Shown in pieces: positions 1 to 44,574 of a stretch of 64,000 nt of DNA. The notes beneath the pieces are model-generated. The model had not been told where the DNA came from and did no database searches. It saw only the letters and a list, made by a program, of their open reading frames with translations. Position numbers and translations under genes: made by a program. The DNA lies in IMG/VR virus record IMGVR_UViG_3300029634_000047, positions 1-64,000 of that record. The stretch is one strand, 5' to 3'. Within the stretch, counting starts at the first letter, position 1. Every line of letters begins with the position of its first letter. Origin of the DNA: a virus.

Positions 1-174
1 AAGGTGCTATTTAAAATTGAATAACCCAGATGATGCAGTGAATTATTATCTTTTTTATATATGACTTTATAGGTCTGATGTCCGATGGCGGGTAACAGAA
101 TGTTTAAGATATCCGTCAGTCTTAGTCGTAGACTGTAGCTGTTAGCGATCTTGGTTTCGTGTAATGCATAAAAA

Positions 175-207
175 AAGTCTTTAATTATCAATGTAATCAA
201 AGACTTT
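175..207. terminator. Hairpin aaagtcttt/aaagacttt flanked by A7 and T6; bidirectional terminator-like
   Basis: 9-bp perfect inverted repeat with A-run upstream and T-run downstream. Confidence 0.4.
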
Positions 208-450
208 TTTACTTTCTTAAGAAGCGGTGCGTACGGGAGATGAACCTTAAATCTATTCCTCACGTACTCAATATCTTAGCAAGCTCTTAATTCTTTCTCC
301 CACTAATAACCCCACGTTTGCAATTCTTTAGATTGCTTGGTGTTGCGGTGGTTGTTTGAGTTGGCGTAAAGATAGGTATATATAGAGAGTGATAAAAGAA
401 AAAAGCTATATTTAACATGAAAATGCAGAGAGTTTTCTTACTTTTGCAAT

Positions 451-1350: not shown

Positions 1351-1353
1351 AAT

Positions 1354-2181
1354 ATGCCTACAACTCGAGTTCTAATTGCTGTAAAAACATATCCTACTCT
1401 ATCGGAAAAATACGATGAATTAGTTTGTACTGCTGGTTTCTTGGAAGATGGCACTTGGATAAGAATATACCCTATTCCTTTTCGTAAATTAAGTTATGAT
1501 AAGAGATATAGTAAATGGCAGTGGATAGAACTTGATTTAGTTAAAAACACAAGTGATTTTAGGAAAGAAAGTTTTCGTCCTGCAAATATAGATAATGAAA
1601 TAAAAATAGTAGGAGAAATTGGTACAAAAAATGGCTGGGCAAAAAGAAAGTCTATTGTTTTAAAACATGTCCGTTATAATATGGCTGAGCTTATTGAAGA
1701 AGCTAAAAATCCTCAAATAGGAACATCATTAGCCGTATTTAAACCTCAAAGAATTATTGATTTTGTTTGGGAAGAATCTTCAAGAGAATGGAATAAGCAG
1801 AAATTAGATGCTGTATATGCCAATCAAGCCCAACATAGTTTATTTGATGTAGAAGAAACTAAAAGAATATTCAAAGTAGCTAAAAAATTGCCTTATGAGT
1901 TCTCATATAAGTTTATATCAGAAGATGGTAAAGAACGAAAACTCATGATTGAAGATTGGGAATTAGGAATGCTTTATTGGAATTGCCTTGCTGGTGCTAA
2001 TGGAAACGAACAAGTTGCATGTGAAAAAGTAAAAGAGAAATATTTCACAGAATGGTGTAAAAAAGATTTATACTTCTTTTTAGGGACAACTAAGAAATTC
2101 CATAATGTAGGTACTAATCCTTTTATTATTATCGGAACTTTTTATCCACCCAAGGAGTTACAATTAAGGATTTCTTTTTGA
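1354..2181 (+). CDS. conserved hypothetical protein
   Basis: 275-aa ORF in same frame as upstream gene, separated by one stop; no recognisable motif. Confidence 0.35.
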   Translation: MPTTRVLIAVKTYPTLSEKYDELVCTAGFLEDGTWIRIYPIPFRKLSYDKRYSKWQWIELDLVKNTSDFRKESFRPANIDNEIKIVGEIGTKNGWAKRKSIVLKHVRYNMAELIEEAKNPQIGTSLAVFKPQRIIDFVWEESSREWNKQKLDAVYANQAQHSLFDVEETKRIFKVAKKLPYEFSYKFISEDGKERKLMIEDWELGMLYWNCLAGANGNEQVACEKVKEKYFTEWCKKDLYFFLGTTKKFHNVGTNPFIIIGTFYPPKELQLRISF

Positions 2182-2184
2182 AAT

Positions 2185-3102
2185 ATGTCCGAAAGCATTC
2201 CACAGTTCTATAAAAGAATCCAACGTTGTGACCCTCAACCGGGTACAACCTACTCTAAGGAGAAACCATATTTCAATGTTCTCTCCCGACAATGTAATTT
2301 TGGGACAGTACAATTCAGTTACAGAGATTTTTACAAAGTCACTTTGATTATTGGTGTGGGAAAACTATATTATGCAGATAAATGGATTTTAGTAAATCGT
2401 CCTGCAATGTTATTTTCTAATCCTTTAGTCCCTTATGCTTGGGAATCAATCAGTGAAGAACAGAAAGGAATGTTTTGTATATTTAATGAGCAATTTGTAC
2501 AGTCAGAAGAAAAAAATAGTTCTTTGGCTAATAGTCCATTGTTCAAAGTAACGGGAGATAAAGTTTTCTTCTTGGATGATACACAAATTACCAAAGTTTT
2601 GGATATATATACCAAAATTCAGGAAGAAAACCAGTCAGACTATGCAAACAAACATGATGTTTTACGTTGTTATCTTCATTTGTTGGTACATACAGCTTTA
2701 AAAATGCAGGAGTTAAATAAATATGAATCACATCCAAATGCTTCGCAACGTATTACCGAATTATTCATAGAATTATTGGATAGACAATTTCCTGTTGATT
2801 ATCCACATTCAGTATTAAGTTTGCGTACTCCTGCCGATTATGCAAACCGTTTGTCTGTACACGTTAATCATTTAAATAAAGTGGTAAAAGATACTACTGG
2901 AAAAACTACTTCTACAATGATTGCGGAAAGAATAATTAAAGAATGTACCCAGTATTTATTACATAGTAATCTTTCTATTTCAGAAATTGCTTATAGCTTG
3001 GGATTTGAAAACATAGCCTATTTCAGTAAATTCTATCGTAAGCATACAGGAAAAACGCCAAGCGAAATTAGAGAGCAACAATTATTTGATTTGTGCAAAT
3101 GA
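2185..3102 (+). CDS. AraC-family transcriptional regulator
   Basis: C-terminal AraC HTH signature (IAYSLGFENIAYFSKFYRKHTGKTPSEIR). Confidence 0.8.
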   Translation: MSESIPQFYKRIQRCDPQPGTTYSKEKPYFNVLSRQCNFGTVQFSYRDFYKVTLIIGVGKLYYADKWILVNRPAMLFSNPLVPYAWESISEEQKGMFCIFNEQFVQSEEKNSSLANSPLFKVTGDKVFFLDDTQITKVLDIYTKIQEENQSDYANKHDVLRCYLHLLVHTALKMQELNKYESHPNASQRITELFIELLDRQFPVDYPHSVLSLRTPADYANRLSVHVNHLNKVVKDTTGKTTSTMIAERIIKECTQYLLHSNLSISEIAYSLGFENIAYFSKFYRKHTGKTPSEIREQQLFDLCK

Positions 3103-3170
3103 TGCTTTGAATAGTGTTAATCAGCCATATTTGCATTACCTAATTTTGTACTGACTAAAAAATATAAATA

Positions 3171-4172
3171 ATGAAGTACAGAAAATTAGGCAAAACAGAA
3201 GTAAACCTATCCGCTATCGGATTGGGTTGTATGGGAATGAGTGCTGCTTATGGAGTAGCCGATGAAAAAGAAAGCATTAAGACATTGCATCGTGCTTTAG
3301 AACTTGGCATTAATTTTTGGGATACTGCGGATGTGTATGGAAATGGTGCTAATGAAGAATTACTATCCAAAGTATTAGCAGAAAAAAGAAATCAGATTTT
3401 CATTGCAACAAAATTTGGTTTTCGCTTACGCAATAGTCAAGGTAGCGTGTTCGCTGGTGGTGAAAGTTATGTGGATGCTTCTCCAAGATATGTAAAACAA
3501 GCTGTAGAGAACAGTCTGAAAAGATTAAATATCGAAACTATAGACTTGTATTATGCGCATCGGATTGACCCCACAATACCAATCGAAGAAACAGTTGAAG
3601 CTATGGCAGAGTTAGTTAAAGAGGGTAAAGTGCGCTATTTGGGACTAAGCGAATGTTCTCCCGAATCACTAAAAAGAGCTTGTGATGTTCATCCTATATC
3701 TGCGGTTGAGAGTGAATATTCTTTATTAACACATGATGTCGAAAAAGAGATTCTACCATTGACAAAAGAATTAGGTGTAACTTTAGTTCCATTTTCACCG
3801 TTAGGCAGAGGTTTAGTAACAAATACTATTAACGTAAATGCATTGGAAGAACATGATTTCCGCAAGCATTTGCCACGTTATAACGGTAAATATTGGGAAA
3901 ATAACCAAAAACTGACTATTGAAATTGCAGAAATAGCAGAAAGCAAAGGAATAACCCCAGCCCAACTTGCTTTAGCTTGGATATTGGCACAAAGTGAAAA
4001 TATAATTCCTATTCCGGGAACTAAACGGATTAAGTATTTAGAAGAAAATGCAAAAGCGGTAGATGTAAATCTATCAATGGAAGATGTCTCTAATATTCAA
4101 CTGCTTTTAAAAAAATATCCTAATATTGGTAACAGATATAATGAATATGATTTTCAGTTTGTAAATAAATAA
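3171..4172 (+). CDS. aldo/keto reductase
   Basis: AKR signatures ([41 protein letters not shown]). Confidence 0.85.
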
Positions 4173-4196
4173 CTTATTAAAAAAGCAAGTTCTACC

Positions 4197-4842
4197 ATGT
4201 TGGTAGGACTTCTTTCTATAATTCCCATAATGAATAATTTATTGGAACAGAGATTCTTCCGATTATTATCGGAATACTCACAGCGTAAAGTTTCTGCATC
4301 CGAATTTACAGAAGCTATTGAAGAACTGGCTACACATTTAGCTGATTTCAGTTTAAACGAACAGGATTATAGCGTTTTACTTCGTTATTTCTCCTTTGGT
4401 TTACATCGACTTAAATCGTATCGTGTGCGGTTTGAGCAAGAAAAAAATACCCTATTTGCATTTGATTGATGAAGCAATAGAACTAATCAAAACAGAAGTA
4501 CGCATAGTGAATTTGCGTATCAAATACCCCGAACAATTCCAGCAACACGCAAATAAGCTATTCTTTTCTCCTCTCCATTTAGCTGATAAAACAAGCCTTA
4601 TCAATATCATGGAAATTGTCAGCGGTCTATTTCTCTCCCAGCGTATAATATATCAGAATGGCAAACCCGTTCACTTGACGGATTTAGGCAAAACTTTTGA
4701 ATGGCTTTTCAATATCAAATTGGGTGATTATCACCAAAAGTACATGGATGTCATCAAGCGAAAGCCAGCCAAACTAACGGAGTTCCTTAATGAACTGGCA
4801 AACCTTATCCGCAAAGAACACGAAAATAAAGGGTATAGATAA
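4197..4842 (+). CDS. hypothetical protein, split into two overlapping ORFs (4197-4469, 4396-4842) at an A7 tract (4441-4447)
   Basis: Both frames open across the A7 run; removing one A fuses them (RFEQEK-KIPYLHLIDEAIEL). Confidence 0.3.
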
Positions 4843-4945
4843 TCAGGTGTTTAGCATCAATTTATACGGGGTAGCGTATGCTACCCTGTAACTTGTTTGC
4901 TTCACTTTTCTGAACTTTGCTTCATCAATCGATTGGTAATCATTA

Positions 4946-5293
4946 ATGTGTAACCTAAAAAATGAAGCAAATATGTATGTAGATAATTACGAGTTCAAAG
5001 ACTGGATGCAAAAATTACTTGAGAAACTTGAAGAAGTAGGTAAAGATGTAAAGAGTTTGCAGACCAACCCCCAAGTGATGCCGAATGACAAACTTTTGGA
5101 TAATCAGGATTTATGCCTGCTATTCAAAGTAAGTACACGGACATTGCAGAGATTGAGAAGCAAGAAACTACTGCCCTTTATGATGATTAGCGGAAAAGCC
5201 TATTACCGAGCTTCCGATGTGCGAGAGTTCATAAAGGAACGGTTTGATGTGGGTACGCTTCGAAAGTTCGAGAAAGAACACGGAAGCGAATAG
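4946..5293 (+). CDS. HTH_17/excisionase-family DNA-binding protein
   Basis: C-terminal motif LFKVSTRTLQRLRSKKLLPFMMISGKAYYRASDV typical of Bacteroides mobile-element HTH proteins. Confidence 0.55.
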   Translation: MCNLKNEANMYVDNYEFKDWMQKLLEKLEEVGKDVKSLQTNPQVMPNDKLLDNQDLCLLFKVSTRTLQRLRSKKLLPFMMISGKAYYRASDVREFIKERFDVGTLRKFEKEHGSE

Positions 5294-5307
5294 GTAAGAG
5301 TGAAATT

Positions 5308-5352
5308 CATCCCGAAGCTGTACACGTGGCAGTTTCGGGATGTTTTTCTTTT
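5308..5352 (+). terminator. long hairpin (catcccgaagctg...cagtttcgggatg) + T-run; copy 1 of a repeated terminator element
   Basis: 13-bp stem, loop with CACGTG, followed by tttttctttt; directly after stop of 4946-5293. Confidence 0.55.
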
Positions 5353-5415
5353 GGCAAGTTTTTGTTGTTCATCTGCCGATATGTACTTTCTATTTAAAAT
5401 ATTGGGATAAAGGTC

Positions 5416-5913
5416 TTATTGCTTTTGTTTATAATAATGAGCTTCAAGGTTATGTAATTGCTGTATAAATAGATTAGTCTGCTTACTGTTTTCTACCTTA
5501 TCATATAAACTAACTATTATATATTCTTGCAATAAATCTTTGTTTGTTATGCAGTGACTGAAATCATATACTTTTGTATTAGAATCTAACTTTGTTATAT
5601 CTTGAACATTAATGTGGTCGGGCATATATCCGTAAACATTGGTATAAGATGTGGTTTTACTCCATTTCCAAGTATAAGTACGAGATCCTCCAAAACTATC
5701 AGAAGTATATGTTTTAATAAAATATAGAATTCGTAGCTTTTTATATAAATATAATGCAAGAATGATAAATCCGATGACTAAAACTATTATCCACAATGAT
5801 ATTCTATAGTTTAGATATGAGGATGGGATACTAAATAGGATTTCCAAAATTCCTATTAAAGACAAGATTCCTCCGATAATCGGATTAGTAAAGAATAGTA
5901 TCAACTTTTTCAT
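5416..5913 (-). CDS. membrane protein, hypothetical
   Basis: Two N-terminal hydrophobic segments; no other motif. Confidence 0.35.
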   Translation of the reverse strand: MKKLILFFTNPIIGGILSLIGILEILFSIPSSYLNYRISLWIIVLVIGFIILALYLYKKLRILYFIKTYTSDSFGGSRTYTWKWSKTTSYTNVYGYMPDHINVQDITKLDSNTKVYDFSHCITNKDLLQEYIIVSLYDKVENSKQTNLFIQQLHNLEAHYYKQKQ

Positions 5914-6125
5914 ATGCTCAATTATGCGTTTTCACTTTTATATGAAACAAAAGTAGTCATTTCTCTATAATTATTTCATTTTCAAAGGAGAATAATTATC
6001 TTTGTTAAGATTATATGATAATATAAAAATGTGCTACCAGTGATCCTTTATGGAGAAAGATTATAATTTACTGAATACAACACCCGTTAGTCCTATATTA
6101 AAGCAAACAACTAACAGTAAAAATT

Positions 6126-6168
6126 CATCTCGAAGCTGTACACGTGGCAGTTTCGAGATGTTTTTTTT
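6126..6168 (+). terminator. copy 2 of the same hairpin with compensatory C>T / G>A changes (catctcgaa...ttcgagatg) + T8 G7
   Basis: Near-identical 45 bp to 5303-5350; both stem arms changed so pairing is preserved. Confidence 0.5.
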
Positions 6169-6186
6169 GGGGGGGCAAGCTTGTAC

Positions 6187-6636
6187 TTATTTCTCTGCCG
6201 ATATTATCCCCTCTTCCTTATAAGATGCTTCAAACTGTTTGGTAAGCGCAATAATCTGCTGGTTCGTCTTTACCAGTTCAACAGTGTATTGTTTCAGTTT
6301 GTAAAGTAGGGCAAGTGCTTTCTTTTCCGTAAAGTTGGAATGAAGTTCTTTCACCGTTTGGTTATAGAGTATGCCTATGCTCCTGAATTGTGAAAACAGT
6401 TGGGAGAGTTGGATGTAATAATCAACCTTGCTTTTATCAATCCTAAGTACCTTAAACGACTTCCCAAAGATGCAGTTCTTAATAAAATGTGCTTTTACCT
6501 TGTAACCTGACTGGTCGTAAAAGGCTAAGAACTTGGCGTTCTCCACATCGTCCAAATTAAGAGAATAGCGGTGTGTTCGTGGGTCAAGTTTAGGCTTGCA
6601 CCCGCCTTTGTTAAATGGCTTCTTTTTCTGTTCCAT
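6187..6636 (-). CDS. MobC-like plasmid mobilization relaxosome protein
   Basis: Size and sequence pattern of Bacteroides MobA/MobC-family small mobilization proteins. Confidence 0.45.
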   Translation of the reverse strand: MEQKKKPFNKGGCKPKLDPRTHRYSLNLDDVENAKFLAFYDQSGYKVKAHFIKNCIFGKSFKVLRIDKSKVDYYIQLSQLFSQFRSIGILYNQTVKELHSNFTEKKALALLYKLKQYTVELVKTNQQIIALTKQFEASYKEEGIISAEK

Positions 6637-7127
6637 AATGATAATTATTTACTGGTTATACGACTTCGGAGTAAAACTAACCACCTTTTAAGGTGGCAAG
6701 GTTTTGAGGCACAAAAAATGAAATGAGTGCCTCAAAACACAACTTGCTGTTATCATGTGATAACAAAAATCTTCCCTATGGTCAGATTGCAAAAGCAAGC
6801 GGCTTGGCTTTATCCTATGTCTGTTTATTGGTTACAAAATTACAGACAGCAATTTACCTTTGAAATATGCCCTATTACGCCAAATTGGGAGACAAACGGA
6901 CAAAGCAACCCCATTTTTAAAAGCATCTATTTTTACCCTTTTCTTTGCTGAAAATTGATTGAATGGCAACAATATATAAGACAGTCAAGCAAGGTTCAAA
7001 TATGGCTTTAAACCATATTTGAAAACCGTTTAGAAATATAGCAACACTGCTATAAAATTGGCTTGTTCCCTTTCAATCAATATCAGAAATCAATCAACCT
7101 ATTTATAAACTATTAGAATTTGAAAGC

Positions 7128-7427
7128 ATGGAAAAAGAAAAACAATCATTACAGGAAACTGGAAGTAAGGAACAGGAAAGCTATAAATCGGTGTTTCTTA
7201 AAAAGCGGTCGGTTTGCAATCGTCAAAGCGTGTACATAAGCGGAGAGATACAGAAACGTATTGTTCAGATTGTAGGCGTGATTACAAACAAGCAGGTAAG
7301 CATCGGAAATTTTATTGATAACGTACTGGAAGAACATTTAAGTGCGCACAATGATGTCCTTTCGGCTCTCTACCGGGAAGAAATGCAAAAAGGAATATTC
7401 AACCAGCCAAAAGAGAAAGACGTATGA
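7128..7427 (+). CDS. DUF3408-like protein (mobile-element associated)
   Basis: Resembles small DUF3408 proteins next to mob genes in Bacteroides elements. Confidence 0.35.
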   Translation: MEKEKQSLQETGSKEQESYKSVFLKKRSVCNRQSVYISGEIQKRIVQIVGVITNKQVSIGNFIDNVLEEHLSAHNDVLSALYREEMQKGIFNQPKEKDV

Positions 7428-7729
7428 ATATCGTAACTATTGAGGAACAGACCTTTAAACAGATATGCGGGCAGTTCTCCGGTTTCGTCAGTCAGGTGGA
7501 ACGGATTTGTAGAGAGAATACTCACCAGCCGGAGAAATGGTTGTCAGGTCGTGAAGTGTGCGCCCTGCTCGGTATCAGCATCCGAAGTTTGCAGAACTAC
7601 CGGGACAGTGGCAAACTGGGCTATTCCCAAATCGGTAACAAACTATACTATAAATCTGCCGACATAGAAAGATTGATTGCTGAATGTACGGAAAACAAGA
7701 AAACAAATCATATATCAAACAATAAATAA
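7424..7729 (+). CDS. HTH_17/excisionase-family DNA-binding protein
   Basis: LSGREVCALLGISIRSLQNYRDSGKLGYSQIGNKLYYKSADIERL. Confidence 0.55.
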   Translation: MNIVTIEEQTFKQICGQFSGFVSQVERICRENTHQPEKWLSGREVCALLGISIRSLQNYRDSGKLGYSQIGNKLYYKSADIERLIAECTENKKTNHISNNK

Positions 7730-7739
7730 AGATGGTCTT

Positions 7740-8042
7740 ATGGAAAAGAAAGAAGAAAATAATACAGAAATAAAGCAGTCATTCAACTTGTCTGCCATTG
7801 TCGGAATATGGGAAAGTCTAAATCTTCATCCTACGGTAATGATATACCAAAGTAAGAAAAAGTATCTGCTTTCGATGCTCCATGTATCGGATAACGGACA
7901 GGCGCAACCAGCCACTTATGAAATACAAAAGGAAGATAGCCGTTACTTTATCGTTTCAGTCTTTAAACAGCTTTATATCGGCTATGACAAGGTAAAAGAC
8001 AGCCTTTCCATTTCTTATTATGGCGAGTATTTGCGTAACTGA
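7740..8042 (+). CDS. hypothetical protein
   Basis: ORF from ATG at 7740 (track ORF 7677 uses TTG). Confidence 0.3.
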   Translation: MEKKEENNTEIKQSFNLSAIVGIWESLNLHPTVMIYQSKKKYLLSMLHVSDNGQAQPATYEIQKEDSRYFIVSVFKQLYIGYDKVKDSLSISYYGEYLRN

Positions 8043-8100
8043 CAGGTGATATATATCAATCATTCAAACCAATTATAAATCAATAAAACGATATAACAAT

Positions 8101-8394
8101 ATGGAACTGATAAACGGCAACAATGAGATAATTAAGGATTTCTTTCAGTCTATGGAAAGAATGTTAGAGGGTATCGGTAAACTGGCAAGGGAAAGCAGAC
8201 CGCATTTGAACGGTGAGAAGTTTCTAAGCAACCGGGAAGCATCCCAATATTTGAAAGTAAGCATCCGCACGCTGCAAGAATGGCGAGATACGGGTGTTAT
8301 CCCTTACATTCAGATAAAAGGCAAAATAATCTATCGTCAAAGCGACATAGAACGGCTTTTGCAGACCTACTATAATAAAGAACGGCAGGAATAA
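8101..8394 (+). CDS. HTH_17/excisionase-family DNA-binding protein
   Basis: FLSNREASQYLKVSIRTLQEWRDTGVIPYIQIKGKIIYRQSDIERLL. Confidence 0.55.
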   Translation: MELINGNNEIIKDFFQSMERMLEGIGKLARESRPHLNGEKFLSNREASQYLKVSIRTLQEWRDTGVIPYIQIKGKIIYRQSDIERLLQTYYNKERQE

Positions 8395-8685
8395 TCTGCT
8401 ACCCTTAAAAAACACATTTTTTTCCGAAACTGACTAAGAACATTAACTCTATCAGTGTAGTATTCCGTCGGTGCAAGCCTTTGGAAGAAAATACAACCCG
8501 GAGCGTAGCGCAGGTGTGGAGATTTTCTTTCAAACCCGTAGGGCTTGGGCTTGAACGGACGGAATACGGAGCTTACCTTTGTTAATGTTTTATTCAGCTT
8601 CGGAAAATTCCTCTTAAAAAGAAATCAAACAAAATCATATTGCACCCAATAAAATTCCGTATATTTGTTTTTAAATACTAAAATC

Positions 8686-10245
8686 ATGGAAAATAGAATA
8701 TTAGAATTTATTGGACATTATAATACTGCACCATTTTTATTTGTTGGTTCTGGATTTTCACGTAGATATTTAGGCTTAGAAGATTGGGAAGGATTGCTAA
8801 AACGGTTTGCTACATTAAATAATGTAGATTATCAATATTACTTTTCATCTTCCGGTGGTAAGCTACCTCGAATAGCATCTTTAATTGCGGAAGACTTACA
8901 TGAACGATGGTGGAAATTGCCTGAATATGAAAAAAGTAGAAATAGATATAAAGAATATAATACAAATAAATATTCTGCATTAAAAATAGAAATATCTCAT
9001 TATCTGAAAGGGAAAATGGATATCAAAATCCAAGATAAAATACTTTTAGAAGAATTAGATTTATGCAAAAAAATAGTCATAGACGGTATTATAACAACAA
9101 ACTACGACAACTTATTAGAAAAAATATTTAGTGATTTTAAAACATATATCGGTCAAGAAGAATTGTTCTTTTCATCTCCTCAAGGAGTTGGAGAAATATA
9201 TAAAATACATGGCTGTCAATCCAAACCTAACTCCTTAATATTAACCGATGAAGATTATATTTCTTTTGAAAAGAAAAATCCATATTTAGCAGCTAAGTTA
9301 CTTACGATATTTACAGAGCATCCAATCATTTTTATTGGTTATTCTTTAACCGATGAAAACATTCTCAAAATTTTAAACTCAATAGCACAATGTTTAACAA
9401 GTGACAACCTGCAAAAATTAAAAAATAGGCTTATTTTTATTCAATATAATGTATCTCAACAAGAGATAGAATATGCAACTCATACTATAGCACATGAAGA
9501 AATACGTATTCCTGTAAAAACTATCACAATGAGTGATTTTAGACCACTATTTCTTGCATTATCATCTATTAAGAGAAAATTTCCCGCAGGTTTACTTCGC
9601 TTATTAAAAGAACATATATATGAACTTGTTATGACAACAGACTCGTCATCTAAAGTTTATGTACAAAATATTGATTCAAAAGAAGACATCAAGAATTTAG
9701 ATGTTGTTTTGGGGATAGGTGCTATTAATAAAGTTGTAAAGGCTGGATATAGACGTTATGAACGGAAAGATTTGATTGAAGATATTCTTATAAAAGATAA
9801 ATCGTTGAATAATAATGATATTGTAAATGTTACTTTACCTGCTTTATTAAAGAGCACAAAATATCTGCCATTCTTTAAATATTTGGTCAATTCAAATTAC
9901 TATCAAGAGCAGAAACCCATAGACACTGTTGATGAAAGAATTATAAAACATCATTTATTGGCTATACAACATAAATTTTATGAGCCTACCGGAAAATATG
10001 ACATTAGGAAGAAAAAAGATGTTGCATCTTATCAAGAAACAATGATTGATTTTATCGACGAATTTGGGTTAGAATATATTAAATATATACCATATCTAAA
10101 AAAAGACAAAATCAACTCTGACGATTTATTTGAAGTCTTGAATAAGCATATTTCTGTTTTAGAAGGAAATAATGAAAATCTAAAAAGCGTTTTTTACAAA
10201 ATGATATGCTATTATGATTTTCTCAAATATCATTTAGGAAAATGA
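8686..10245 (+). CDS. SIR2-family (SIR2_2/DUF4020-type) protein with uncharacterised ~200-aa C-terminal domain; putative anti-phage NADase
   Basis: LFVGSGFSRRY, TTNYDNLLE, IYKIHG, IFIGYSLTDENI motifs of defence-type SIR2 domains; cargo position next to integrase. Confidence 0.65.
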   Translation: MENRILEFIGHYNTAPFLFVGSGFSRRYLGLEDWEGLLKRFATLNNVDYQYYFSSSGGKLPRIASLIAEDLHERWWKLPEYEKSRNRYKEYNTNKYSALKIEISHYLKGKMDIKIQDKILLEELDLCKKIVIDGIITTNYDNLLEKIFSDFKTYIGQEELFFSSPQGVGEIYKIHGCQSKPNSLILTDEDYISFEKKNPYLAAKLLTIFTEHPIIFIGYSLTDENILKILNSIAQCLTSDNLQKLKNRLIFIQYNVSQQEIEYATHTIAHEEIRIPVKTITMSDFRPLFLALSSIKRKFPAGLLRLLKEHIYELVMTTDSSSKVYVQNIDSKEDIKNLDVVLGIGAINKVVKAGYRRYERKDLIEDILIKDKSLNNNDIVNVTLPALLKSTKYLPFFKYLVNSNYYQEQKPIDTVDERIIKHHLLAIQHKFYEPTGKYDIRKKKDVASYQETMIDFIDEFGLEYIKYIPYLKKDKINSDDLFEVLNKHISVLEGNNENLKSVFYKMICYYDFLKYHLGK

Positions 10246-10303
10246 TTCAAGAAAAAATAGGCAATCAATAGCATGGCATATAGCTATTGATTGCCCTCAT
10301 TCT

Positions 10304-11533
10304 CTATTTTATAAGAAAATTTCTTTCCACATTTGCCATATCACGCATAATAGAGCTATCTAAAACTTTTGCATAATGCTGTGTCATTCGGATATTGGAA
10401 TGTCCCAAAATCTTAGACACATTTTCCATTGATACATCATTGGCAAGGAAAACAACTGTAGCCGCAGTATGTCTTGCAACATGCGTAGTTAGACGTTTAG
10501 TAATGCCGCATAAATCAGCGATTTCTTTTAAGTAGGCATTCATGCGCTGATTACTGATTACAGGCAAAAGTACACCTTTCTTTATGCACTCTGCATTATC
10601 TTCATATTTCCTCAATATCCTTTGAGGAATAGATAAAACAGGAATATTGCACATTTGATTAGTTTTCTGTCGTGCCTTGCGTATCCATAAAGCACCACTA
10701 TTGTCTTTTATCAGATGTTCACGGCTTAACTGCTGCACATCAACGAAAGCAAGCGCAGTAAAACAGCAAAAGACAAAAATGTCCCTTACCTGCTCCAGCC
10801 GTTTAATAGTAAATTCCTTGTTCATTAGAATATCCAGTTCCTCACGTGAAAGAAATTCCACATTTACTTCTTCCTGCTTGAAGTGGATGCCGTAAAATGG
10901 GTCTTTCTTTATCCAGTCGTTAGCCAAAGCAATACGGACAACCTTTTTCAAGTTCTTCAAATGTTTCAATGCAGAGTTGTTTTGGCAATGCTTATCCGTT
11001 TTCAGCCAAAAATCAAAATCACGGATAAACTGCCCATCCAGTTCTGCCAACATTATATCATCATGGTGGTAACAACTGCGGATATATTCTTTCAGGCGGT
11101 TTATGGAAGTATCAAACTTGGTAACGGTGCTTTCAGTATATTCTTTGCCAATCAGGGCACGACATTTTTCGTTATGCTCTGCATACATTTCCAGCAAACT
11201 GCGCTGTACCTTGTCCCGTCCGTAAAAACAATCCTTTATTATATCGGCTGTTATTGGCTTGTTATCTATCTCCAGTTCTCGGTGTATCTGCAATACTTTG
11301 GCACGAACCGTATTAATATAGTGGTTCAGTTCTGTGGCTACACGGTCTTTTCCTTTGGAACATTCCTTTTTCTGATTCCATAAATCTACAGGAATATTCC
11401 GTTTAATCATAACTTCGGCTACTCGCTTGTTTACGGTGATGCGCATACAAACAGGAGCTTCACCGTTTTTCAGAAGTTTTGATTTCTTAATGATGAACAA
11501 TACGCTTAATGTGTTTCTTTTCACTGCTCCCAT
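10304..11533 (-). CDS. int: tyrosine site-specific integrase (Bacteroides type, N-terminal arm-binding domain)
   Basis: C-terminal catalytic region HVARHTAATVVF...ILGHSNIRMTQHYAKV; N-terminal MRITVNKR arm-type domain. Confidence 0.85.
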   Translation of the reverse strand: MGAVKRNTLSVLFIIKKSKLLKNGEAPVCMRITVNKRVAEVMIKRNIPVDLWNQKKECSKGKDRVATELNHYINTVRAKVLQIHRELEIDNKPITADIIKDCFYGRDKVQRSLLEMYAEHNEKCRALIGKEYTESTVTKFDTSINRLKEYIRSCYHHDDIMLAELDGQFIRDFDFWLKTDKHCQNNSALKHLKNLKKVVRIALANDWIKKDPFYGIHFKQEEVNVEFLSREELDILMNKEFTIKRLEQVRDIFVFCCFTALAFVDVQQLSREHLIKDNSGALWIRKARQKTNQMCNIPVLSIPQRILRKYEDNAECIKKGVLLPVISNQRMNAYLKEIADLCGITKRLTTHVARHTAATVVFLANDVSMENVSKILGHSNIRMTQHYAKVLDSSIMRDMANVERNFLIK

Positions 11534-11864
11534 AATTCTTTGATTTTTAAGTGATACAAAATTAGTTTGTTACGCTCAAAAACCAGCTACGCAAAATACT
11601 GACAATCAAAGACAAATGCGTCAATTCGTGGGAGCAAAACCGGCTTTCAAAAAGTCCCATGAATAAGCCACGTAAGGACTGCCTAAAACCGCTATTTTTT
11701 GCCGAAGCGGAGAAAAAGAAAAAGCTCTGAAATCCTTGAATTTCAGAGCTTTGCTTTAATTTGCTATTTGCTTTCGCGGTGCGTACGGAACTAACACATT
11801 TTACTATCATACTGATAATCAGTAAAATACTTGTTAAAAATATATTAATGGTATCATATTTATA

Positions 11865-22803: not shown

Positions 22804-23895
22804 TGAAAGATGTAATTACCCCCCCCCAAACATCTCTATCCGTATCGCTGGTTTTTAGAAGATACTGTTTTTACTAAAGATAAAGGAAAGGTCTTTTCTT
22901 GCTTTGCGTGTGGTGGTGGCTCTACAATGGGGTACAAGTTAGCCGGATTTGATGTAATTGGCTGCAATGAAATAGATCCCAAAATGATGAAATGCTACAT
23001 TGAAAACCATAATCCTCAATATACTTTCTTAGAAGATATTCGTGATTTAGTGAGAAGGAATAATCTTCCCGAAGAATTGTACAATTTAGATATATTGGAC
23101 GGATCACCACCTTGCAGTACATTTAGCATGTCGGGATTACGTGAAGATGCGTGGGGTAAAGAAAAGAAATTCAAGGAAGGTCAAAAGACACAAGTTTTAG
23201 ATACGCTCTTTTTTGATTTTATTGCACTTGCCAAACGCTTAAAACCTAAAGTTGTTATTGCTGAAAATGTGAAAGGACTTCTTTTAGGGAATGCGATTGA
23301 TTATGTCAGACGTATATACAAAGGCTTTGAGGAAGCTGGTTATTATTGTCAGCATTTTCTTCTTGATGCTTCTAAAATGGGAGTACCTCAAAAAAGAGAA
23401 CGTGTATTCTTTATATGTATCAGGCATGATTTGGGAGTCCATTTTCTAAAAGTTTCAGACCTCTTCAATGTTGAGCCACATATTTGTATGAAGTTTAATG
23501 AAATACCCATTTTGATGAAAGAAATAACAGACTTTAAGGGGAAAGAAATTAAAAATGGTACAAAAATTCGATATGTTTGGGAACATAGAGAAATTGCTGA
23601 TAAAGACATGTCTGATACATGTATGCGACTATACGGTAAAGAGTTATTCTTCTCAAAGAAATATATACTTGAAGATCGCATTTGCAATACGATAACTTCC
23701 AAGCATGATGATTTGGTACACTTTACACAACCTTTATATCTAAGTACATCTGAAATCTGTAAAGTATCTACTTTCCCCATCGACTATAACTTTTACAACC
23801 AATCCCCACATTATATCTGTGGAATGAGTGTACCACCCGTTATGATGGCACAAGTAGCCTCACGAGTATGGAAATATTGGTTATCTAAATTATAA
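22803..23895 (+). CDS. DNA (cytosine-5)-methyltransferase interrupted at a C9 tract (22819-22827)
   Basis: Motif I FSCFACGGGS (upstream of track ORF, other frame), motif IV PPCSTFSMSG, motif VI AENVKGLL; ATG 22803 overlaps upstream stop (TGATG); C8 would fuse. Confidence 0.8.
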
Positions 23896-25560: not shown

Positions 25561-26145
25561 ATGTCAGAACTTAAAATCACACAAGAAAAGGTTACAGCCG
25601 CTTTTAGTGAAGCAAACGACTGTCCTAAAGCAATTAGTATTCTAACAGCTTTATTCGGAAAGCAAAAGCCGGATTATACAGATTATCACAATATCAAAAC
25701 CTACGAAGATGCTTGTGAAGCAATAGGTGTAAAACCTATTGTTCGCCTACTTGTTGAAGATGAAGACGGACACAAAGAAGAAGTGGCTGATATTGCACAC
25801 CTCGCCTACATCAAACTATGCACAATTGCCCGTGCATTGAACAACGATCCTGATTTTCCACGATTTACTAAAGATGAATACCGTTATACGCCGTGGTTTT
25901 ATCTTTATAATCAGAAAGAAATTGATGAAATGGACGAAGAGGATCGTAATCGGCTGGTTCTTTGGGGCGGTAGTGCGTATAACGGTGCGAGTTGCGGCCT
26001 CGCTTCTGCGAACTCGAGTATCGCTTGGTCGTGCTCGGCTGCGCATGTCGGCTCTCGCCTTGCTGTAAAATCAAGTGAAATCGCAATTTACTTTGGAGAA
26101 CAATTCAAAGAATTATGGAAAGACTTTCTGATTGGAAAAAAGTAA
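25561..26145 (+). CDS. DGR target protein 2 (small, VR2 near C-terminus)
   Basis: C-terminal LVLWGGSAYNGASCGLASANSSIAWSCSAAHVGSRLA encoded by VR2. Confidence 0.6.
   Translation: MSELKITQEKVTAAFSEANDCPKAISILTALFGKQKPDYTDYHNIKTYEDACEAIGVKPIVRLLVEDEDGHKEEVADIAHLAYIKLCTIARALNNDPDFPRFTKDEYRYTPWFYLYNQKEIDEMDEEDRNRLVLWGGSAYNGASCGLASANSSIAWSCSAAHVGSRLAVKSSEIAIYFGEQFKELWKDFLIGKK
25953..26059 (+). repeat. DGR variable repeat VR2
   Basis: About 107 bp homologous to TR; all 17 mismatches lie at TR adenines. Confidence 0.8.
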
Positions 26146-39734: not shown

Positions 39735-40130
39735 TTACTTCAATTTTGCTAATACTTCTTTTGCGATCTCCTTAGCCTTGATACGATAACTCTGATAATC
39801 AGTGTATTCTTTCAGATATTCGGCACGCTTACCTTCGTCAAGTTCCGAAGCCATATCACGTGCCATTTCCAAGTTGGCGAAAATGGCATCACGTTTGTTT
39901 GCATCATAACGTTCCATGATAATGGCGCTTACAATGCTGTCATAATCATGTTCTCCTTCAACATCCACATTTTCACAGACATACTGGTCTTCAACAACCA
40001 TATCTTCCGAACCGGCCTTTTGAATGACTTCTTTTCTTTCAAAGTCAAAATAAATGCGTAGCAACGCACCTTCAACTACAAATTCAATACCAGTCGGCAG
40101 TTCTCCTACAAGAGTTCCATAACTTTTCAT
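39735..40130 (-). CDS. acidic hypothetical protein
   Basis: ORF. Confidence 0.3.
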   Translation of the reverse strand: MKSYGTLVGELPTGIEFVVEGALLRIYFDFERKEVIQKAGSEDMVVEDQYVCENVDVEGEHDYDSIVSAIIMERYDANKRDAIFANLEMARDMASELDEGKRAEYLKEYTDYQSYRIKAKEIAKEVLAKLK

Positions 40131-40151
40131 AAATTACCTCCATTTTTATAA

Positions 40152-41695
40152 TTATTCTTCAAAATAATAAGCACTCTTCCCGTCACCTAACGAACGCCGC
40201 TTGACAATCACATTTTCCACTGGAAAAATCTTCTGACCGTTATTCTCCGCTTCGCGAGCCTGGTCCAACACATCTTTCAGATTGTAACAGTTCGTTATGA
40301 ATTTGCTACGTTGTCCGTTCTGTTCAAAAAGAACACAATATCTACCTTCACCTTGCTTTGTCTTCACATTCGTTTCAAAGTCCACCACTGTTATAGGGAC
40401 ATTGAGAATATCCATCAATCTTGTCTCTTTTACATCGAAGAACTTCTTTCCGTCCTTTGTTCTACCACTCTGTTTGATACCTTTATCTGCAAAACTCATA
40501 TCATTATTTGTTATTGTTCTCCATAAATTCTTACAATCTCCCCACTTACACCAGCCCCAGTATGAAGCTCGTATCTCGCGGTTACGTTTCCGGCTTTTTA
40601 TTCGTTTCACCTTTCGGGCAAAGTTCTTTTTCATATTTTTACGCATCCGAACATTATCTTTCGTGAAGCAATAGCCCAAAAAGTTAATCCTTCTTCCTCT
40701 TACTACGTTTTCGCTTTCTATGCTTTTTGTTCCCATTTTTTGTTTCTGTTCCTATCGGAGCAATACAACTGTTTGCTTTAACTACCAACCCAACTTTTGC
40801 ACTTTCCCGTTCATACGCACGAATAAGAAACAACGCTTCGGCCTTAGAACGAGCCAGCATAACATTATCATCGCAATATCTATGCAGGCATTTGACACGA
40901 TATTTCTCCTTCATTGTATGATCTATCCGGCTTGCCGCAAAATTCCCGATAGGTTGGCTTGTAAATGCTCCAATCGGAACACCTCTTCTTCCGTTCAACT
41001 TCATTCTCCAATACGTCAACTAACTCTGTTCCGCTGTCATACGATAAAACAGCTATCTCGATCAATTTAATAAATCGTTCATCTTTGAATTTCCTTCTCA
41101 ATGCAGCAACAATAAGCTCATGAAGAATACTTTGATAGAACTTTTTGAAATCAGTCTTTACGAACCATTTGTATTCCGGGTACCGGTGAAGAAAACGTTT
41201 CATTCTCCTTACTCCAAAATGTAATCCCTTTCCCTTGATACACGCACTTGTATCATAAATCAAATTTCTATAAACATCTTCTTCAATCACCCTCATAATT
41301 GCATGGTGCAATATACGCCACGGGAAATATTTCTGTTTGACAATATCTCGAACCTTTCCTGCATCACTTTTTACTCTCATTACGCTATAATCCGGTGCCG
41401 GAAAATCCAATGTCAGGATCATCAACTGCAAAGCTCGGAGGTCTTCTTCCGGGTGTAGATTATGCCGCCTGATAAAGCGGTTTTTCTTAACCTTCCCATC
41501 TTGTGCTTCTTTGTCCGCTTCACGTAAATTATTTATCTCTGCTATACGTTCAAGAATATACCCGGCTCTTTTAGATTTCTTTCCACCGTTTGCTTCTATC
41601 CGTTTATTGTCAGCCTCTATCCTTTCCGCTATAATTCTATCAATTTCATTATGCGATAGACTCTTCCAATCAATATCACTTCTTCCAATATTCAC
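40152..41695 (-). CDS. DGR reverse transcriptase, read through three ORFs (40880-41695, 40684-41019, 40152-40736)
   Basis: SACIKGKGLHFG, WFVKTDFKKFYQSI (motif A), GVPIGAFTSQPIGNF (motif B), RYCDDNVML (YxDD), INFLGYCF; each junction repaired by deleting one base. Confidence 0.75.
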
Positions 41696-41980
41696 TGCTG
41701 CTTTGTTTTAAAATTTACACCATACTTCCAATTTTGTCTTGTTCAGACTATTTTAATTATTCCGATAACTGCAAGCTGTTTTTACTTGCTTGAATAATTC
41801 GCCCGGAGCTTTCGAGAACCAACCTACTAACACCGCTTGTTGCCTTTCGCAAATTGGGCAACCTTTCCGCATTCTTGATTTTCTGACATCGTAACCAATT
41901 GATTACTACGTTGCAACGATATAAATCCTGCAAGGTCATGGCTCGGAGAACTCGCAGATTACTCTACGATAAATAAGTAT

Positions 41981-42089
41981 GGCGAGAGCCGATATTCGCA
42001 TTCGAGTTCGACCAATCGTTATTCGAGTTCGCATAAGCGAGGCCGCAATTCGCACCGTTATTCGCATTACCGCCCCAAAGAACCAGCTC
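41981..42089 (-). repeat. DGR template repeat (TR); startless cassette encoding ...LVLWGGNANNGANCGLAYANSNNDWSNSNANIGSR
   Basis: AAY-codon rich, no start codon, bounded by stop upstream; mismatches to both VRs only at its adenines. Confidence 0.85.
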
Positions 42090-42211
42090 TTGTTCCCCTC
42101 TGCCAACCGTCCACGCCTTTCGGCTTTCGTCCCGTTATCCGTTGCCGTAAAACGAGAAGGTGGACGGGTTTTAATTAATTGAAATTCAAAGAACTAATAT
42201 TTCAAAATCTA

Positions 42212-43531
42212 TTATGCAGCCATCAAAGATGCACCGCTAACAAATGTTAAATTCCCAAAATACGCAAGGCGAGAGCCGAAAGACGCATGCGAGGACGACC
42301 AAGCGTAACCCGAGTACGCACAAGCGAGGCCGCAATACGCACCGTCATTCGCAGAACCGCCCCAAAGAACCAGCTGCCCAGTAGTGTTTGCCCATGAATA
42401 ATCAGCCCAATAAGAAGTGCTGTTTCCACCAATCTTTTTCGGGAAAATATCAAAATGCTCCCCAAGAATTATTTCCTGCACTTGACCGGAAGCTGTCTGA
42501 CGGGTAGCTTGTCTGTATTCACCATTTGGATGCGCAGCTAATTCAGCAGTAGTCGGTAAACGGTTTCCTTTGTAAATGAAAATTTCCGTTCCACTTTGAG
42601 CACTATTGTTGGAACTACCGCAAAATACTCCTTGCAGAAATTCCCACTGCCACCCATAAGGATCTTCTATACCCATCATGTTCACCCGTGAACAATCCAC
42701 TCCAGTATTACTTCCATTCACCACAGAAATAGCTATTTTGCCCCAATTGTCACCGAGACTCTTTGTTGCGCCAGTTTGCAATGCTGCCGCAGCAGCCCAC
42801 AAGTCTTTACTGGAGCTACCACCCACACCATAACCAAGTTTGGCTTGAATATTGGTATCTCCGTACTGGGACAGCCCCAACATCATAATAAGCTTTCTCT
42901 GATCGTAATCGGTCAGTCCCCATTCCTTACCGTTCACTTGTGCAGCATTCCAAAATGCGTTGATTGTCTTGCTGCCTGCCGGTGCAACTCCTGAACGTGA
43001 AACAAGTGCGCTACCTGACATGGAGCCTTTGTATGCACCGATACAGTTATACATTCCACCATTTGCCCCACCAATAAACTCACCGCCAATAGGTAGCATC
43101 GAGAGCCATAAGACTGGTACACCACTTACACTGTCAGTCTGTACACGATAATACAAACGTGGCCCTATCCACATCACATGCCCTTTGGTTTCATCCACCG
43201 CAGTACCATCAGCAAACACCGCACTATTGGTAGGGGACATTTTAGCAGCCCTTCCATCATTCGTTACGAGATAACGGCCACAATACAACTTGTATTCTGT
43301 CCATGCGGCTGTATTACCTATCACACCATAGTTCGTGCTACTTTGGGTTGATTGTTTGATTGGAATCCCCCAAGCCACCTGCCTCAACATTTGTTCGTCA
43401 CCATTATTAATAGCATTCATGAAGTTTTCCACGGTAATGCGTCTGACACTACCACCAACTTCCACCAATACTGTATTGGAACGCAGAATGGAGGTCACCA
43501 ATGTTTCATTTCCTAATCCTTTAGTTGCCAT
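42212..43531 (-). CDS. DGR target protein 1 (tail-fiber/receptor-binding-like, VR1 at C-terminus)
   Basis: C-terminal LVLWGGSANDGAYCGLACAYSGYAWSSSHASFGSRLA encoded by VR1; located in tail module. Confidence 0.7.
   Translation of the reverse strand: MATKGLGNETLVTSILRSNTVLVEVGGSVRRITVENFMNAINNGDEQMLRQVAWGIPIKQSTQSSTNYGVIGNTAAWTEYKLYCGRYLVTNDGRAAKMSPTNSAVFADGTAVDETKGHVMWIGPRLYYRVQTDSVSGVPVLWLSMLPIGGEFIGGANGGMYNCIGAYKGSMSGSALVSRSGVAPAGSKTINAFWNAAQVNGKEWGLTDYDQRKLIMMLGLSQYGDTNIQAKLGYGVGGSSSKDLWAAAAALQTGATKSLGDNWGKIAISVVNGSNTGVDCSRVNMMGIEDPYGWQWEFLQGVFCGSSNNSAQSGTEIFIYKGNRLPTTAELAAHPNGEYRQATRQTASGQVQEIILGEHFDIFPKKIGGNSTSYWADYSWANTTGQLVLWGGSANDGAYCGLACAYSGYAWSSSHASFGSRLAYFGNLTFVSGASLMAA
42268..42376 (-). 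repeat. DGR variable repeat VR1
   Basis: 19 mismatches to TR, all at TR adenines. Confidence 0.85.
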
Positions 43532-43551
43532 AATATTATTTTGTTTTTATG

Positions 43552-44574
43552 TTAATTAAAATGACATTCTGCCAAAACATCAACATCATATTGAGTCCCG
43601 TTTCTGTCAGTTTCCGTTGTTGTTACAGATATAGAATTTGTTGTAGAATGTTTCAAACTCTTCCAGTTTTCCTTATCCATCACATCCATAGTCCACGATG
43701 CGGAAGTAGGAGTATAAGTTGACCCCGTAGTCATATTTACAATCTTGGCACTTACTGTAACGGGTTGTCCGGTATCAACCTCTTTGTTGGAAGAAGTTAT
43801 ATAACATACAATTTGAAATTCATCTGCCGTATCAATGATACGTACCCCGGCACGTGCTATCGGTTGTGAAGCACTTGAAGACTGATAAACTTCTGCTATG
43901 AATAACTGGGTACCGTCCACATCACCACGGGTAACAGTTACACTTTTCTGTCCGTTCTTATCAGTCCAAGCCGCCGTGTCCTTATACCATTTTATATAGT
44001 AATCGGTAATGGCATTGGCACCGGCATACAGCTTGGTAGTCAGAGTACAACTTGTTACTTTGCTTGTTAACTGTTCGGTACTTGCAAGAATAGCAAGATA
44101 GTAAGAGCTGGCTCCCATATTCTGAATGGCAATAGGCAGTTCCCCGGTCAAATTATACTCAACACCTGCCGTAGAAGCGACACATGAATAAGTCAATGTA
44201 TCTCCTGCAATATTCGTTTTGCTTGCCAAGTTTCCGACAATTTTAATGGCACCGGTACTGGTATTCAAAGAGAATTTGCCCGTACTGTCTTTTTTCCAAC
44301 CTCCACTTTCCGCACCGTTAAAATTTAAAGCCACTCCATTGTAAGCCCAACTATGACCAGACAAACTGACCGCCAACCCACGTGCCGAAGTTACTTTGGG
44401 TGTCCGTACCGGCTGATTCGCAGCTATACTCCAATCAGGAGAGACAGCCCCACTTTCTTCATCTACGGCCTGAAACAATGGAATGCCATTATTTTCAAAA
44501 GTCAGCATCAGGCTGTCATTGGAACGAAGACGTTTAATCGTGATGCTATTTTGGGCACTATAATTTTCTGCCAT
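43552..44574 (-). CDS. tail protein, hypothetical
   Basis: ORF in tail module. Confidence 0.35.
   Translation of the reverse strand: MAENYSAQNSITIKRLRSNDSLMLTFENNGIPLFQAVDEESGAVSPDWSIAANQPVRTPKVTSARGLAVSLSGHSWAYNGVALNFNGAESGGWKKDSTGKFSLNTSTGAIKIVGNLASKTNIAGDTLTYSCVASTAGVEYNLTGELPIAIQNMGASSYYLAILASTEQLTSKVTSCTLTTKLYAGANAITDYYIKWYKDTAAWTDKNGQKSVTVTRGDVDGTQLFIAEVYQSSSASQPIARAGVRIIDTADEFQIVCYITSSNKEVDTGQPVTVSAKIVNMTTGSTYTPTSASWTMDVMDKENWKSLKHSTTNSISVTTTETDRNGTQYDVDVLAECHFN

Follow-up and report, generated by a model that had tools for sequence, protein, structure and literature searches.

The locus considered here raises the question of whether a diversity-generating retroelement (DGR) can be at work when its reverse transcriptase (RT) gene lies in three reading frames, and of how the enzyme would then be made. 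It is found in a 64,000-nt stretch of DNA (positions 1 to 64,000 of the IMG/VR virus record IMGVR_UViG_3300029634_000047, hereafter the window) and is the DGR of a temperate Bacteroides/Phocaeicola phage of the LoVEphage/Quimbyvirus type, which the window carries as a prophage. Variation in natural populations makes it highly probable that the DGR is active and its three-frame RT functional, and sequence comparison indicates that the RT gene is not broken and is most likely read through two +1 recoding events, most likely ribosomal. An initial reading by a model of the letters and open reading frames (ORFs) alone (the original prediction) had proposed a DGR whose template repeat (TR) and variable repeat (VR1) differ only at template adenines.

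Template and variable repeats

The features on which this interpretation rests are:

41981..42088, minus strand: TR, non-coding, with 10 AAY codons in the VR register, almost invariant among relatives
42268..42375, minus strand: VR1, variable repeat at the 3' end of target gene 1, with A-templated variable positions between 42355 and 42280
42212..43531, minus strand: DGR target gene 1 (439 aa), annotated in relatives as a tail collar fibre or tail protein, VR1 encoding its C-terminal ligand-binding surface
42264..42279, minus strand: 3' end of VR1 resembling an initiation of mutagenic homing (IMH) site (TCGGCTCTCGCC-TTGC), the TTGC invariant in every VR1 and VR2 examined
41977..41992, minus strand: IMH*-like 3' end of TR (TCGGCTCTCGCC-ATAC), with two fixed positions unlike both VRs, AAAC in more distant clades

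Compared as minus-strand coding sequence, TR and VR1 form an ungapped 108-nt direct repeat with an offset of 287, which a repeat search of the window returned as 41971-42088 against 42258-42375 at the same offset and 84-85% identity. The 108-nt core contains 16 mismatches, and all 16 replace an A of TR by T, C or G in VR1; the probability that every one of them should land on the 24 A sites is P = 1.4e-13, and chance is therefore excluded. A 4-nt extension at the 3' end adds A>T (41980) and A>G (41978), giving 18 A-site mismatches, and the first mismatch at a base other than A is T>G at 41976. At the other end, the G/C mismatch at 42089/42376 marks the repeat boundary and lies outside the repeat.

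The confinement to adenines announced by the original prediction thus stands, while its count of 19 mismatches is corrected to 16 in the core and 18 in the extended repeat; its coordinates (41981-42089 and 42268-42376) hold to within one base, the 5' boundary having been extended by one base over the G/C mismatch. The description of TR as a startless, AAY-rich cassette bounded by a stop proved accurate: read in the VR register, TR gives RDESRKAWTVGRGEQELVLWGGNANNGANCGLAYANSNNDWSNSNANIGSRHTYLS between two stops, with no start codon, a stop upstream and the 10 AAY codons, and in the register of the upstream 439-aa gene it gives ELVLWGGNANNGANCGLAYANSNNDWSNSNANIGSRHTYLS followed by a stop. VR1 was likewise rightly placed at the 3' end of the 439-aa gene, inside ORF 42212-43531, with 56 nt between its end and the stop codon, TR itself being non-coding.

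The two repeats also end differently, as the original prediction had remarked (cgccATAc in TR, cgccTTGc in VR). VRs close with GGCTCTCGCC-TTGC and TRs with -ATAC, where A and A stand at 41980/41978 in every TR but one; the counterparts of these bases are T and G throughout the VRs, both in 42/42 VR1 and in the full set of 30 copies of the second variable repeat (VR2; the count excludes locus L094, which is a copy of TR). From its distribution in the sequences, this fixed difference appears to behave like an IMH/IMH* pair giving DGR homing its direction. The TR of locus L032 (IMG/VR 3300008063_000299, locus ~3541-3660) has the VR-type end CGCCTTGC in place of CGCCATAC, which may reflect an assembly error between the repeats or the gain of a VR end by this TR.

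Diversification in natural populations

We collected 58 related loci, and TR/VR1 statistics were drawn from the 45 holding both repeats. VR1 occurred in 42 distinct sequences in these 45 loci, with TR nearly invariant. When each VR1 was compared with the TR of its own locus, mismatches affected 595/987 A sites (60.3%) as compared to 2/1051 C, 3/1369 G and 17/1129 T sites (0.2, 0.2 and 1.5%, respectively), and variation reached every one of the 23 adenines from 42068 to 41993. Bacteroides phage BI-TP1, Phocaeicola phage PV4-TP1 and several LoVEphage records match the region 40100-43600 at 99.0-99.5% identity, and of the 17 differences that separate the window from BI-TP1 in 3,501 nt, 16 fall inside VR1. 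VR differences between genomes about 99.5% identical indicate that diversification is recent. Furthermore, the TRs of divergent clades carry non-A substitutions (e.g., at 42081/42080, 42048 and 42041) that recur in the cognate VR, which is what copying of TR information into VR would produce.

VR2 was found with a TR pattern whose adenines were masked, which matched 25953-26016:

25953..26059, plus strand: VR2, 16 kb away on the opposite strand, with mismatches to TR only at TR adenines and a TTGC end
25561..26145, plus strand: DGR target gene 2 (194 aa), situated amid non-structural genes, methyltransferase genes included

Between the end of VR2 and the stop codon of the 194-aa ORF lie 86 nt. 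The 31 sequences extracted from related loci and the window included 29 distinct versions (one, from L094, being the TR copy), and mismatches again concentrated at A sites (56.6% vs. 0-1.3% at other bases). The scale of VR diversity in public data is illustrated by the two 90%-identity clusters of the first target protein (P0121 and P0122), which hold 8,819 and 42,382 distinct member sequences.

Some observations on these data are reported for completeness. The higher mismatch rate at T sites of VR1 (1.5%) than at C or G sites (0.2%) consists mostly of T>G changes, and VR1 of L001, L026 and L053 shows T>G just 5' of the first AA pair (equivalent to window position 42069). One locus, L051 (IMG/VR 3300045988_096618), combines the target gene of a 79% clade with TR and RT identical to the window's type and accounts for several of the mismatches counted as non-A; it looks like a recombinant or chimeric contig.

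A reverse transcriptase in three frames

Downstream of TR, the RT gene is distributed over three overlapping ORFs, here listed together with the segments that would be joined:

40880..41695, minus strand: RT ORF A, with RT motifs 1-2
40684..41019, minus strand: RT ORF B, with PIGAFTSQ and YCDD
40152..40736, minus strand: RT ORF C, with INFLGY and ~110 further residues
40985..41695, minus strand: RT segment A, frame 1, N-terminal extension and fingers, motifs 1-2 (RVT_1); the ORF runs on out of frame to 40880
40687..40984, minus strand: RT segment B, frame 2, IGAFTSQ motif and catalytic YCDD
40152..40685, minus strand: RT segment C, frame 3, thumb (INFLGY...) and a conserved ~110-aa C-terminal extension

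On the minus strand the three frames have p mod 3 = 1, 0 and 2, so that each junction is a +1 shift. The joined protein (513 aa) matches RVT_1 (E 9e-12), and its best PDB match is bRT of Bordetella phage BPP-1 (8ub7; E 2.4e-13), aligned over residues 42-391 and hence across both junctions. It holds PIGAFTSQ, of the IGxxxSQ type typical of DGR RTs, and YCDD. The protein was first built with junction 2 at the stop codon (...KKD-NFLGY), a placement that later comparison replaced by ...SK-GRRINFLGY; the database results are independent of this choice.

The order of frames f, f+1, f+2 is kept in all related loci that retain the RT gene, including those at ~70% (L032-L039, L044, L057 and L058), 62-70% (L050) and 58% (L062) amino acid identity, and the motif frames of L097, a 46% relative, fit the same order. 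Compared with L029, the ratio of nonsynonymous to synonymous substitution rates (dN/dS) is 0.06, 0.09 and 0.06 in segments A, B and C, respectively, with synonymous sites saturated versus other clades. Among the 120 best homologue clusters, homology ends at about residue 237, i.e., at site 1, in 55 (50 of them ending at 235-240, with 44-99% identity), A and B are joined with a stop at site 2 in seven, and 56 (31-53% identity) are full-length single ORFs including the C-terminal extension; 62 of the 120 are thus split at site 1 or site 2. Taken together, the conserved frame order, the purifying selection and the distribution of homologues indicate that the split RT is derived, conserved and selected, and, as judged from these alignments, the split is neither decay nor sequencing error.

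The claims of the original prediction bearing on this part fared well. A frameshift-split RT just downstream of TR was correctly described (the three ORFs above), the population variation that it proposed to look for is present and concentrated at A-encoded positions (42 distinct VR1 in 45 loci, 595/987 A sites mismatched), and its concern that no functional RT might exist appears to be answered by the conserved three-frame order and the purifying selection on each frame. The DGR interpretation as a whole agrees with the A-specific mismatches, the C-terminal VR, the adjacent DGR-type RT and the population variation.

The C-terminal ~110 aa (40152-40480, minus strand; ...KDGKKFFDV...ITVVDFE...GEGRYCVLFE...SLGDGKSAYYFEE) have no Pfam match and are found also in single-ORF relatives down to 31% identity, including P0004 and P0007. 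Individual variants have lost the RT: in L038 and L039 (IMG/VR 3300045988_095628 and _125032) it is disabled by an 11-nt deletion that removes YCDD and adds one extra shift, and it is lost in L040, P0001 and P0003, the variants other than L038/L039 having large internal deletions that fuse the N-terminal part to the C-terminal extension. The deletion breakpoint of P0001 is at or near frameshift site 1.

Candidate frameshift sites

The two junctions can be confined to narrow stretches:

40979..40993, minus strand: candidate frameshift site 1 (+1), where CGG AAG AAG AGG TGT continues as ...GGT GTT CCG (G-V-P-I-G)
40684..40701, minus strand: candidate frameshift site 2 (+1), where AAG AGG AAG AAG GAT TAA continues as GGA AGA AGG ATT AAC TTT TTG GGC (G-R-R-I-N-F-L-G-Y)

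At site 1, stops in L029 and L050 show that frame B opens just 9-14 codons before G-V-P-I-G, and conservation of the 0-frame peptide E-N-E-x-x-R-(K/N) reaches as far as CGN-AAN. At site 2, synonymous changes (Arg CGT/AGA/CGA, Ser AGT/AGC) indicate that frame B is selected to ~40700, and the +1 frame matches G-R-x-I-D-F-L-G-Y of single-ORF relatives. Most lineages have NAG-AGG-N in the 0 frame at both sites (at site 1, 8/9 split lineages), where +1 reading gives GGN and a conserved glycine; in the window the motifs are AAG AGG T at 40987-40981 and AAG AGG A at 40701-40695. AGG is a rare Arg codon in the prophage (3.7 per 1000), and in-frame NAG-AGG dicodons are absent from 35 other prophage genes (0 in 11,349 codons vs. 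~3 expected by a rough estimate), a weak indication.

We regard ribosomal +1 frameshifting as the probable route by which the three segments are joined. As for the signal, a shift of the hungry-codon type at AGG is the best candidate to emerge from the sequences, and is put forward tentatively. Yeast Ty1 CUU-AGG-C, E. coli tandem AGG-AGG and prfB CUU-UGA-C are known hungry-codon or +1 programmed frameshifts; the sites described here resemble them in the proposed +1 movement at a rare AGG, in the common +1-frame codon GGN and in a conserved site overlapping a required residue, and depart from them in having no conserved slippery P-site codon, a stop at site 2 that is not universal and two shifts per gene. 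If both junctions answered to one signal, a +1 shift at rare AGG, the RT would be throttled twice and tied to AGG decoding by the host, and mutagenesis would be rare and state-dependent; its architecture would have evolved in steps from ancestors with a single ORF, and would be common to a broad clade of gut-phage DGRs. We consider this possible rather than probable. We infer, in particular, the ribosomal nature, the exact position and the regulatory purpose of the shifts.

Other signals were considered and rejected. Stop-stimulated shifting at site 2 (GAT TAA C, as in prfB or antizyme) would suit five lineages that share the stop column, and fails as a general signal because the stop is missing from L096, L098 and L099; where present, it results incidentally from ATT-GAY/AAY read in the +1 frame. 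P-site slippage on a run of A (AAA-A) fits L029, L033 and L050 and does not fit the window (AAG-A) or L099/L097 (AAT-C, AAC-A). Reading TAG as a sense codon would still require the frame changes. Regarding a phage-encoded tRNA-Arg(CCU) or quadruplet-decoding suppressor, the eight LoVEphage tRNAs examined are Tyr, Ser, Glu, Gln, Trp, Asn, Phe and Met with normal anticodons (a ninth, reported in PMC8525569, was not located), and no tRNA was found in the window.

Several observations sit uneasily with ribosomal recoding at a common motif. NAG-AGG has exceptions, namely AGC at site 1 of L035, and GGG (L050) and TGG (L099) at site 2; re-pairing in the P site would be poor in several lineages (AAT, AAC, GAG or CAG preceding the skipped base); none of the known +1 slippery motifs suits every lineage; and 1-nt indels restore one junction in P0005, P0002 and L059, so that change at the DNA level is possible.

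The last of these points belongs to the alternative that survives best, that is, the joining of the RT frames at the nucleic-acid level, either by slipped-strand change of the DNA (phase variation) or by transcriptional slippage. P0005/L060 reads CGG AAA AGA GGT, one A fewer than L033, which brings segments A and B in frame, and P0002 and L059 regain the frame through nearby 1-nt indels. Nevertheless, neither the window sites (AAGAAGAGG and AAGAGGAAGAAGG) nor those of L099/L097 (AATCAGAGG and AACAAGAGG) contain a homopolymer long enough for efficient slippage, and among the loci examined at the DNA level the 44 that retain the whole RT gene are all in the shifted state at both sites. Site 1 is in frame in L060/L061 and L059 alone, and the site-2 shift is present in all. 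Joining of this kind would need both sites to switch at once; we therefore hold it to be unlikely.

Relic, split enzyme or duplication

The two frame breaks could also be taken as signs of a relic, with a pseudogene for an RT and with TR/VR differences that are either historical or the work of another DGR RT acting in trans (e.g., from Hankyphage or a chromosomal DGR). Variants without the RT or without YCDD do occur in the population (P0001, P0003, L040 and L038/L039), and other DGRs are common in Bacteroides (PMC12629997). A pseudogene, on the other hand, would not keep three open frames in order across lineages saturated at synonymous sites, nor a dN/dS of 0.06-0.09, the VRs differ between genomes otherwise about 99.5% identical, and TR, spacer RNA and RT are conserved together, which makes a relic very improbable.

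Equally improbable is separate translation of the three ORFs followed by assembly of their products into a split RT, in spite of ORF C starting with ATG (40736) and of gene callers annotating three coding sequences. Frame B opens right after a stop, its only start in the window is TTG, and other clades have no conserved start; both breaks interrupt the polymerase fold (one separating the fingers from IGxxxSQ, the other just before FLGY), single-ORF relatives align continuously across both junctions, and similarity of frame C to these relatives starts upstream of any conserved ATG. Finally, ordinary duplication or gene conversion between paralogous lectin cassettes would account for a 108-nt direct repeat at 84-85% identity, but is already rejected by mismatches lying solely at adenines of the non-coding copy (P ~1e-13), by the return of this pattern in a second copy and in dozens of genomes, and by the DGR-type RT alongside.

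Proposed mechanism and RNA structure

In an active DGR with a recoded RT, and by analogy with BPP-1, an RNA spanning a 5' stem, TR and a structured spacer would be reverse-transcribed by the phage RT, which would misincorporate opposite template adenines. The resulting cDNA would replace VR1 at the C-terminal C-type-lectin surface of the tail-associated protein, and also the remote VR2 in a small non-structural protein, with the direction set by the fixed 3' difference. The two +1 shifts at NAG-AGG-N, where GGN supplies glycine, would probably keep full-length RT low. The RNA intermediate and the homing steps are thus modelled on BPP-1, and the candidate RNA elements are:

42105..42168, minus strand: stable stem directly 5' of TR, minimum free energy -18.2 kcal/mol, z -2.49, with 2/200 shuffles folding as well
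41696..41976, minus strand: structured non-coding spacer between TR and RT (280 nt), with invariant blocks, candidate equivalent of the BPP-1 Sp RNA

The stem sits in the 120 nt between target gene 1 and TR, and the conservation of its 3' arm in divergent clades suggests that it probably belongs to the DGR RNA. In the consensus fold of the spacer (eight sequences), 18/68 pairs are changed on both sides, as compared to 9.2 +/- 2.1 in shuffled and 4-11 in slid controls; an Rfam scan of the TR/spacer region found no family, with one chance match at E 0.58. A putative long-range helix pairs the 3' end of TR (GCCATACTT, 41975-41983) with AAGTATGGT (~41718-41726), just upstream of the RT start, and shows a compensatory change, clades with the TR end AAAC carrying the matching GTTT (alignment columns 8-16 / 315-325). 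By comparison with BPP-1, this helix may position the priming site of the DGR RNA.

Two points count against an active DGR operating in this way, the activity of which is read from population variation. No hairpin or cruciform was found downstream of VR1 or VR2 (z +0.9 and +0.5, respectively), unlike BPP-1. Moreover, neighbouring ORFs gave no Pfam match, and no Avd/23S_rRNA_IVP family appeared among the 25 of 32 families listed for 50 small ORFs of the window, a search in which a divergent Avd could be missed (the seven unlisted families appear to be weaker than E 0.003 if sorted by E-value). Avd, a four-helix bundle, is needed in the canonical BPP-1 mechanism, and some DGR classes lack it; the C-terminal extension of the RT might stand in for it here.

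Target proteins

An AlphaFold model of the first target protein, built from 42 homologues, has a pLDDT of 90.8 and a pTM of 0.89, and its best Foldseek match in the PDB is the DGR variable protein TaqVP (5vf4; E 2.7e-9, probability 1.0). Further matches were all weak (E above 0.01) and comprised Mtd variants (1yu0-4), formylglycine-generating enzymes (FGE), PvdO and Treponema TvpA; in Pfam, a lectin-domain match stayed below threshold. A PDB sequence search returned nothing meaningful for either target protein, and for the first it was the structure-based search that succeeded. The model thus assigns to this protein the C-type-lectin fold typical of DGR targets. The second target had no Pfam or PDB sequence match, and its single-sequence AlphaFold model (pLDDT 35) is unusable. 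Upstream of it, the ORF 22927-23895 resembles a cytosine-5 methyltransferase by eye.

Phage and genomic setting

In the annotation of BI-TP1, PV4-TP1 and LoVEphage the gene order is a tail protein followed by three small ORFs, the first of which is called reverse transcriptase. Homology to these phages starts at window position 11771, which makes the window a prophage lying within or beside other chromosomal or mobile DNA. Positions 1-11770 are not LoVEphage sequence and encode DUF488, an AraC-type regulator, an aldo-keto reductase, an RteC-like protein and HTH_17 proteins, together with a SIR2-like protein (8665-10245) and a tyrosine integrase (10304-11533) that is unlike the integrases of LoVEphage records. 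Going by its gene content, the window appears to span the prophage end or an adjoining mobile/defence island.

Relation to known systems and significance

The element itself was already described in 2021, and the window is one more prophage copy. Benler et al. (2021; Microbiome 9:78, PMC8008677), writing on the highly prevalent Bacteroides phage "Quimbyvirus", reported an RT in three frames with two proposed programmed frameshifts, a VR following the tail-fibre genes and a second, distal VR on the opposite strand amid methyltransferases, both in C-type-lectin proteins, and 22 adenine sites substituted among near-identical genomes. That DGR is essentially the same as the one in the window, where 23 variable adenine positions were counted. 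Quimbyvirus and LoVEphage are each reported to be ~95% identical to the B. dorei CP011531.1 prophage (PMC8008677; PMC8525569), and because both align to it we infer that they are the same species. The LoVEphage paper (Van Espen et al., 2021; mSystems, PMC8525569) noted only an RT downstream of the tail collar fibre gene, and in a 2025 study LoVEphage-species phages were induced from cultured hosts and DGRscan was run on the induced phages (PMC12629997). In the literature searched, no further work on the RT frameshift question was found.

Two other DGRs invite comparison. The DGR of BPP-1 (mtd-avd-TR-brt), reportedly the subject of Liu et al. in 2002, shares with the present one the order VR, TR, RT, A-specific mutagenesis, a C-terminal VR in a tail-associated protein of C-type-lectin fold, fixed VR/TR 3' differences like IMH/IMH*, a structured spacer between TR and RT, and bRT as the closest solved relative. 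Unlike BPP-1, the present element has no detected Avd, no hairpin after the VR and two targets, one of them remote and on the other strand, and its RT differs from bRT in its N- and C-terminal extensions, two frame breaks and low identity (E 2.4e-13 only). TaqVP of Thermus aquaticus, the best structural match to the 439-aa target (TM 0.44-0.51), is also a DGR variable protein of C-type-lectin fold, differing in its 15% sequence identity to the target and in being a bacterial rather than a phage tail protein.

What is added here to the Quimbyvirus account, in which they do not appear, are the +1/+1 direction of the shifts, their narrow windows and the shared AGG motif, all as suggested by sequence comparison, the extent of the split clade and of its relatives with a single ORF, the analysis of selection, the fixed difference of IMH type and the structure of the spacer RNA. 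Such refinements bring an open mechanistic question within reach of a test, and are not a new kind of system. How and why the three-frame RT is made can be addressed directly, as cultured inducible lysogens exist (BI-TP1 and PV4-TP1). Should the double +1 shift act to limit RT dosage, DGR mutagenesis would have its first known case of translational control, with relevance to the engineering of DGR-based targeted evolution systems in Bacteroides. LoVEphage/Quimbyvirus are among the most often detected temperate phages of the human gut, LoVEphage having been found in ~8% of 1,241 viromes and making up as much as 64% of the reads in one of them (PMC12629997), and the DGR is a plausible contributor to the host range of LoVEphage across Bacteroides and Phocaeicola species.

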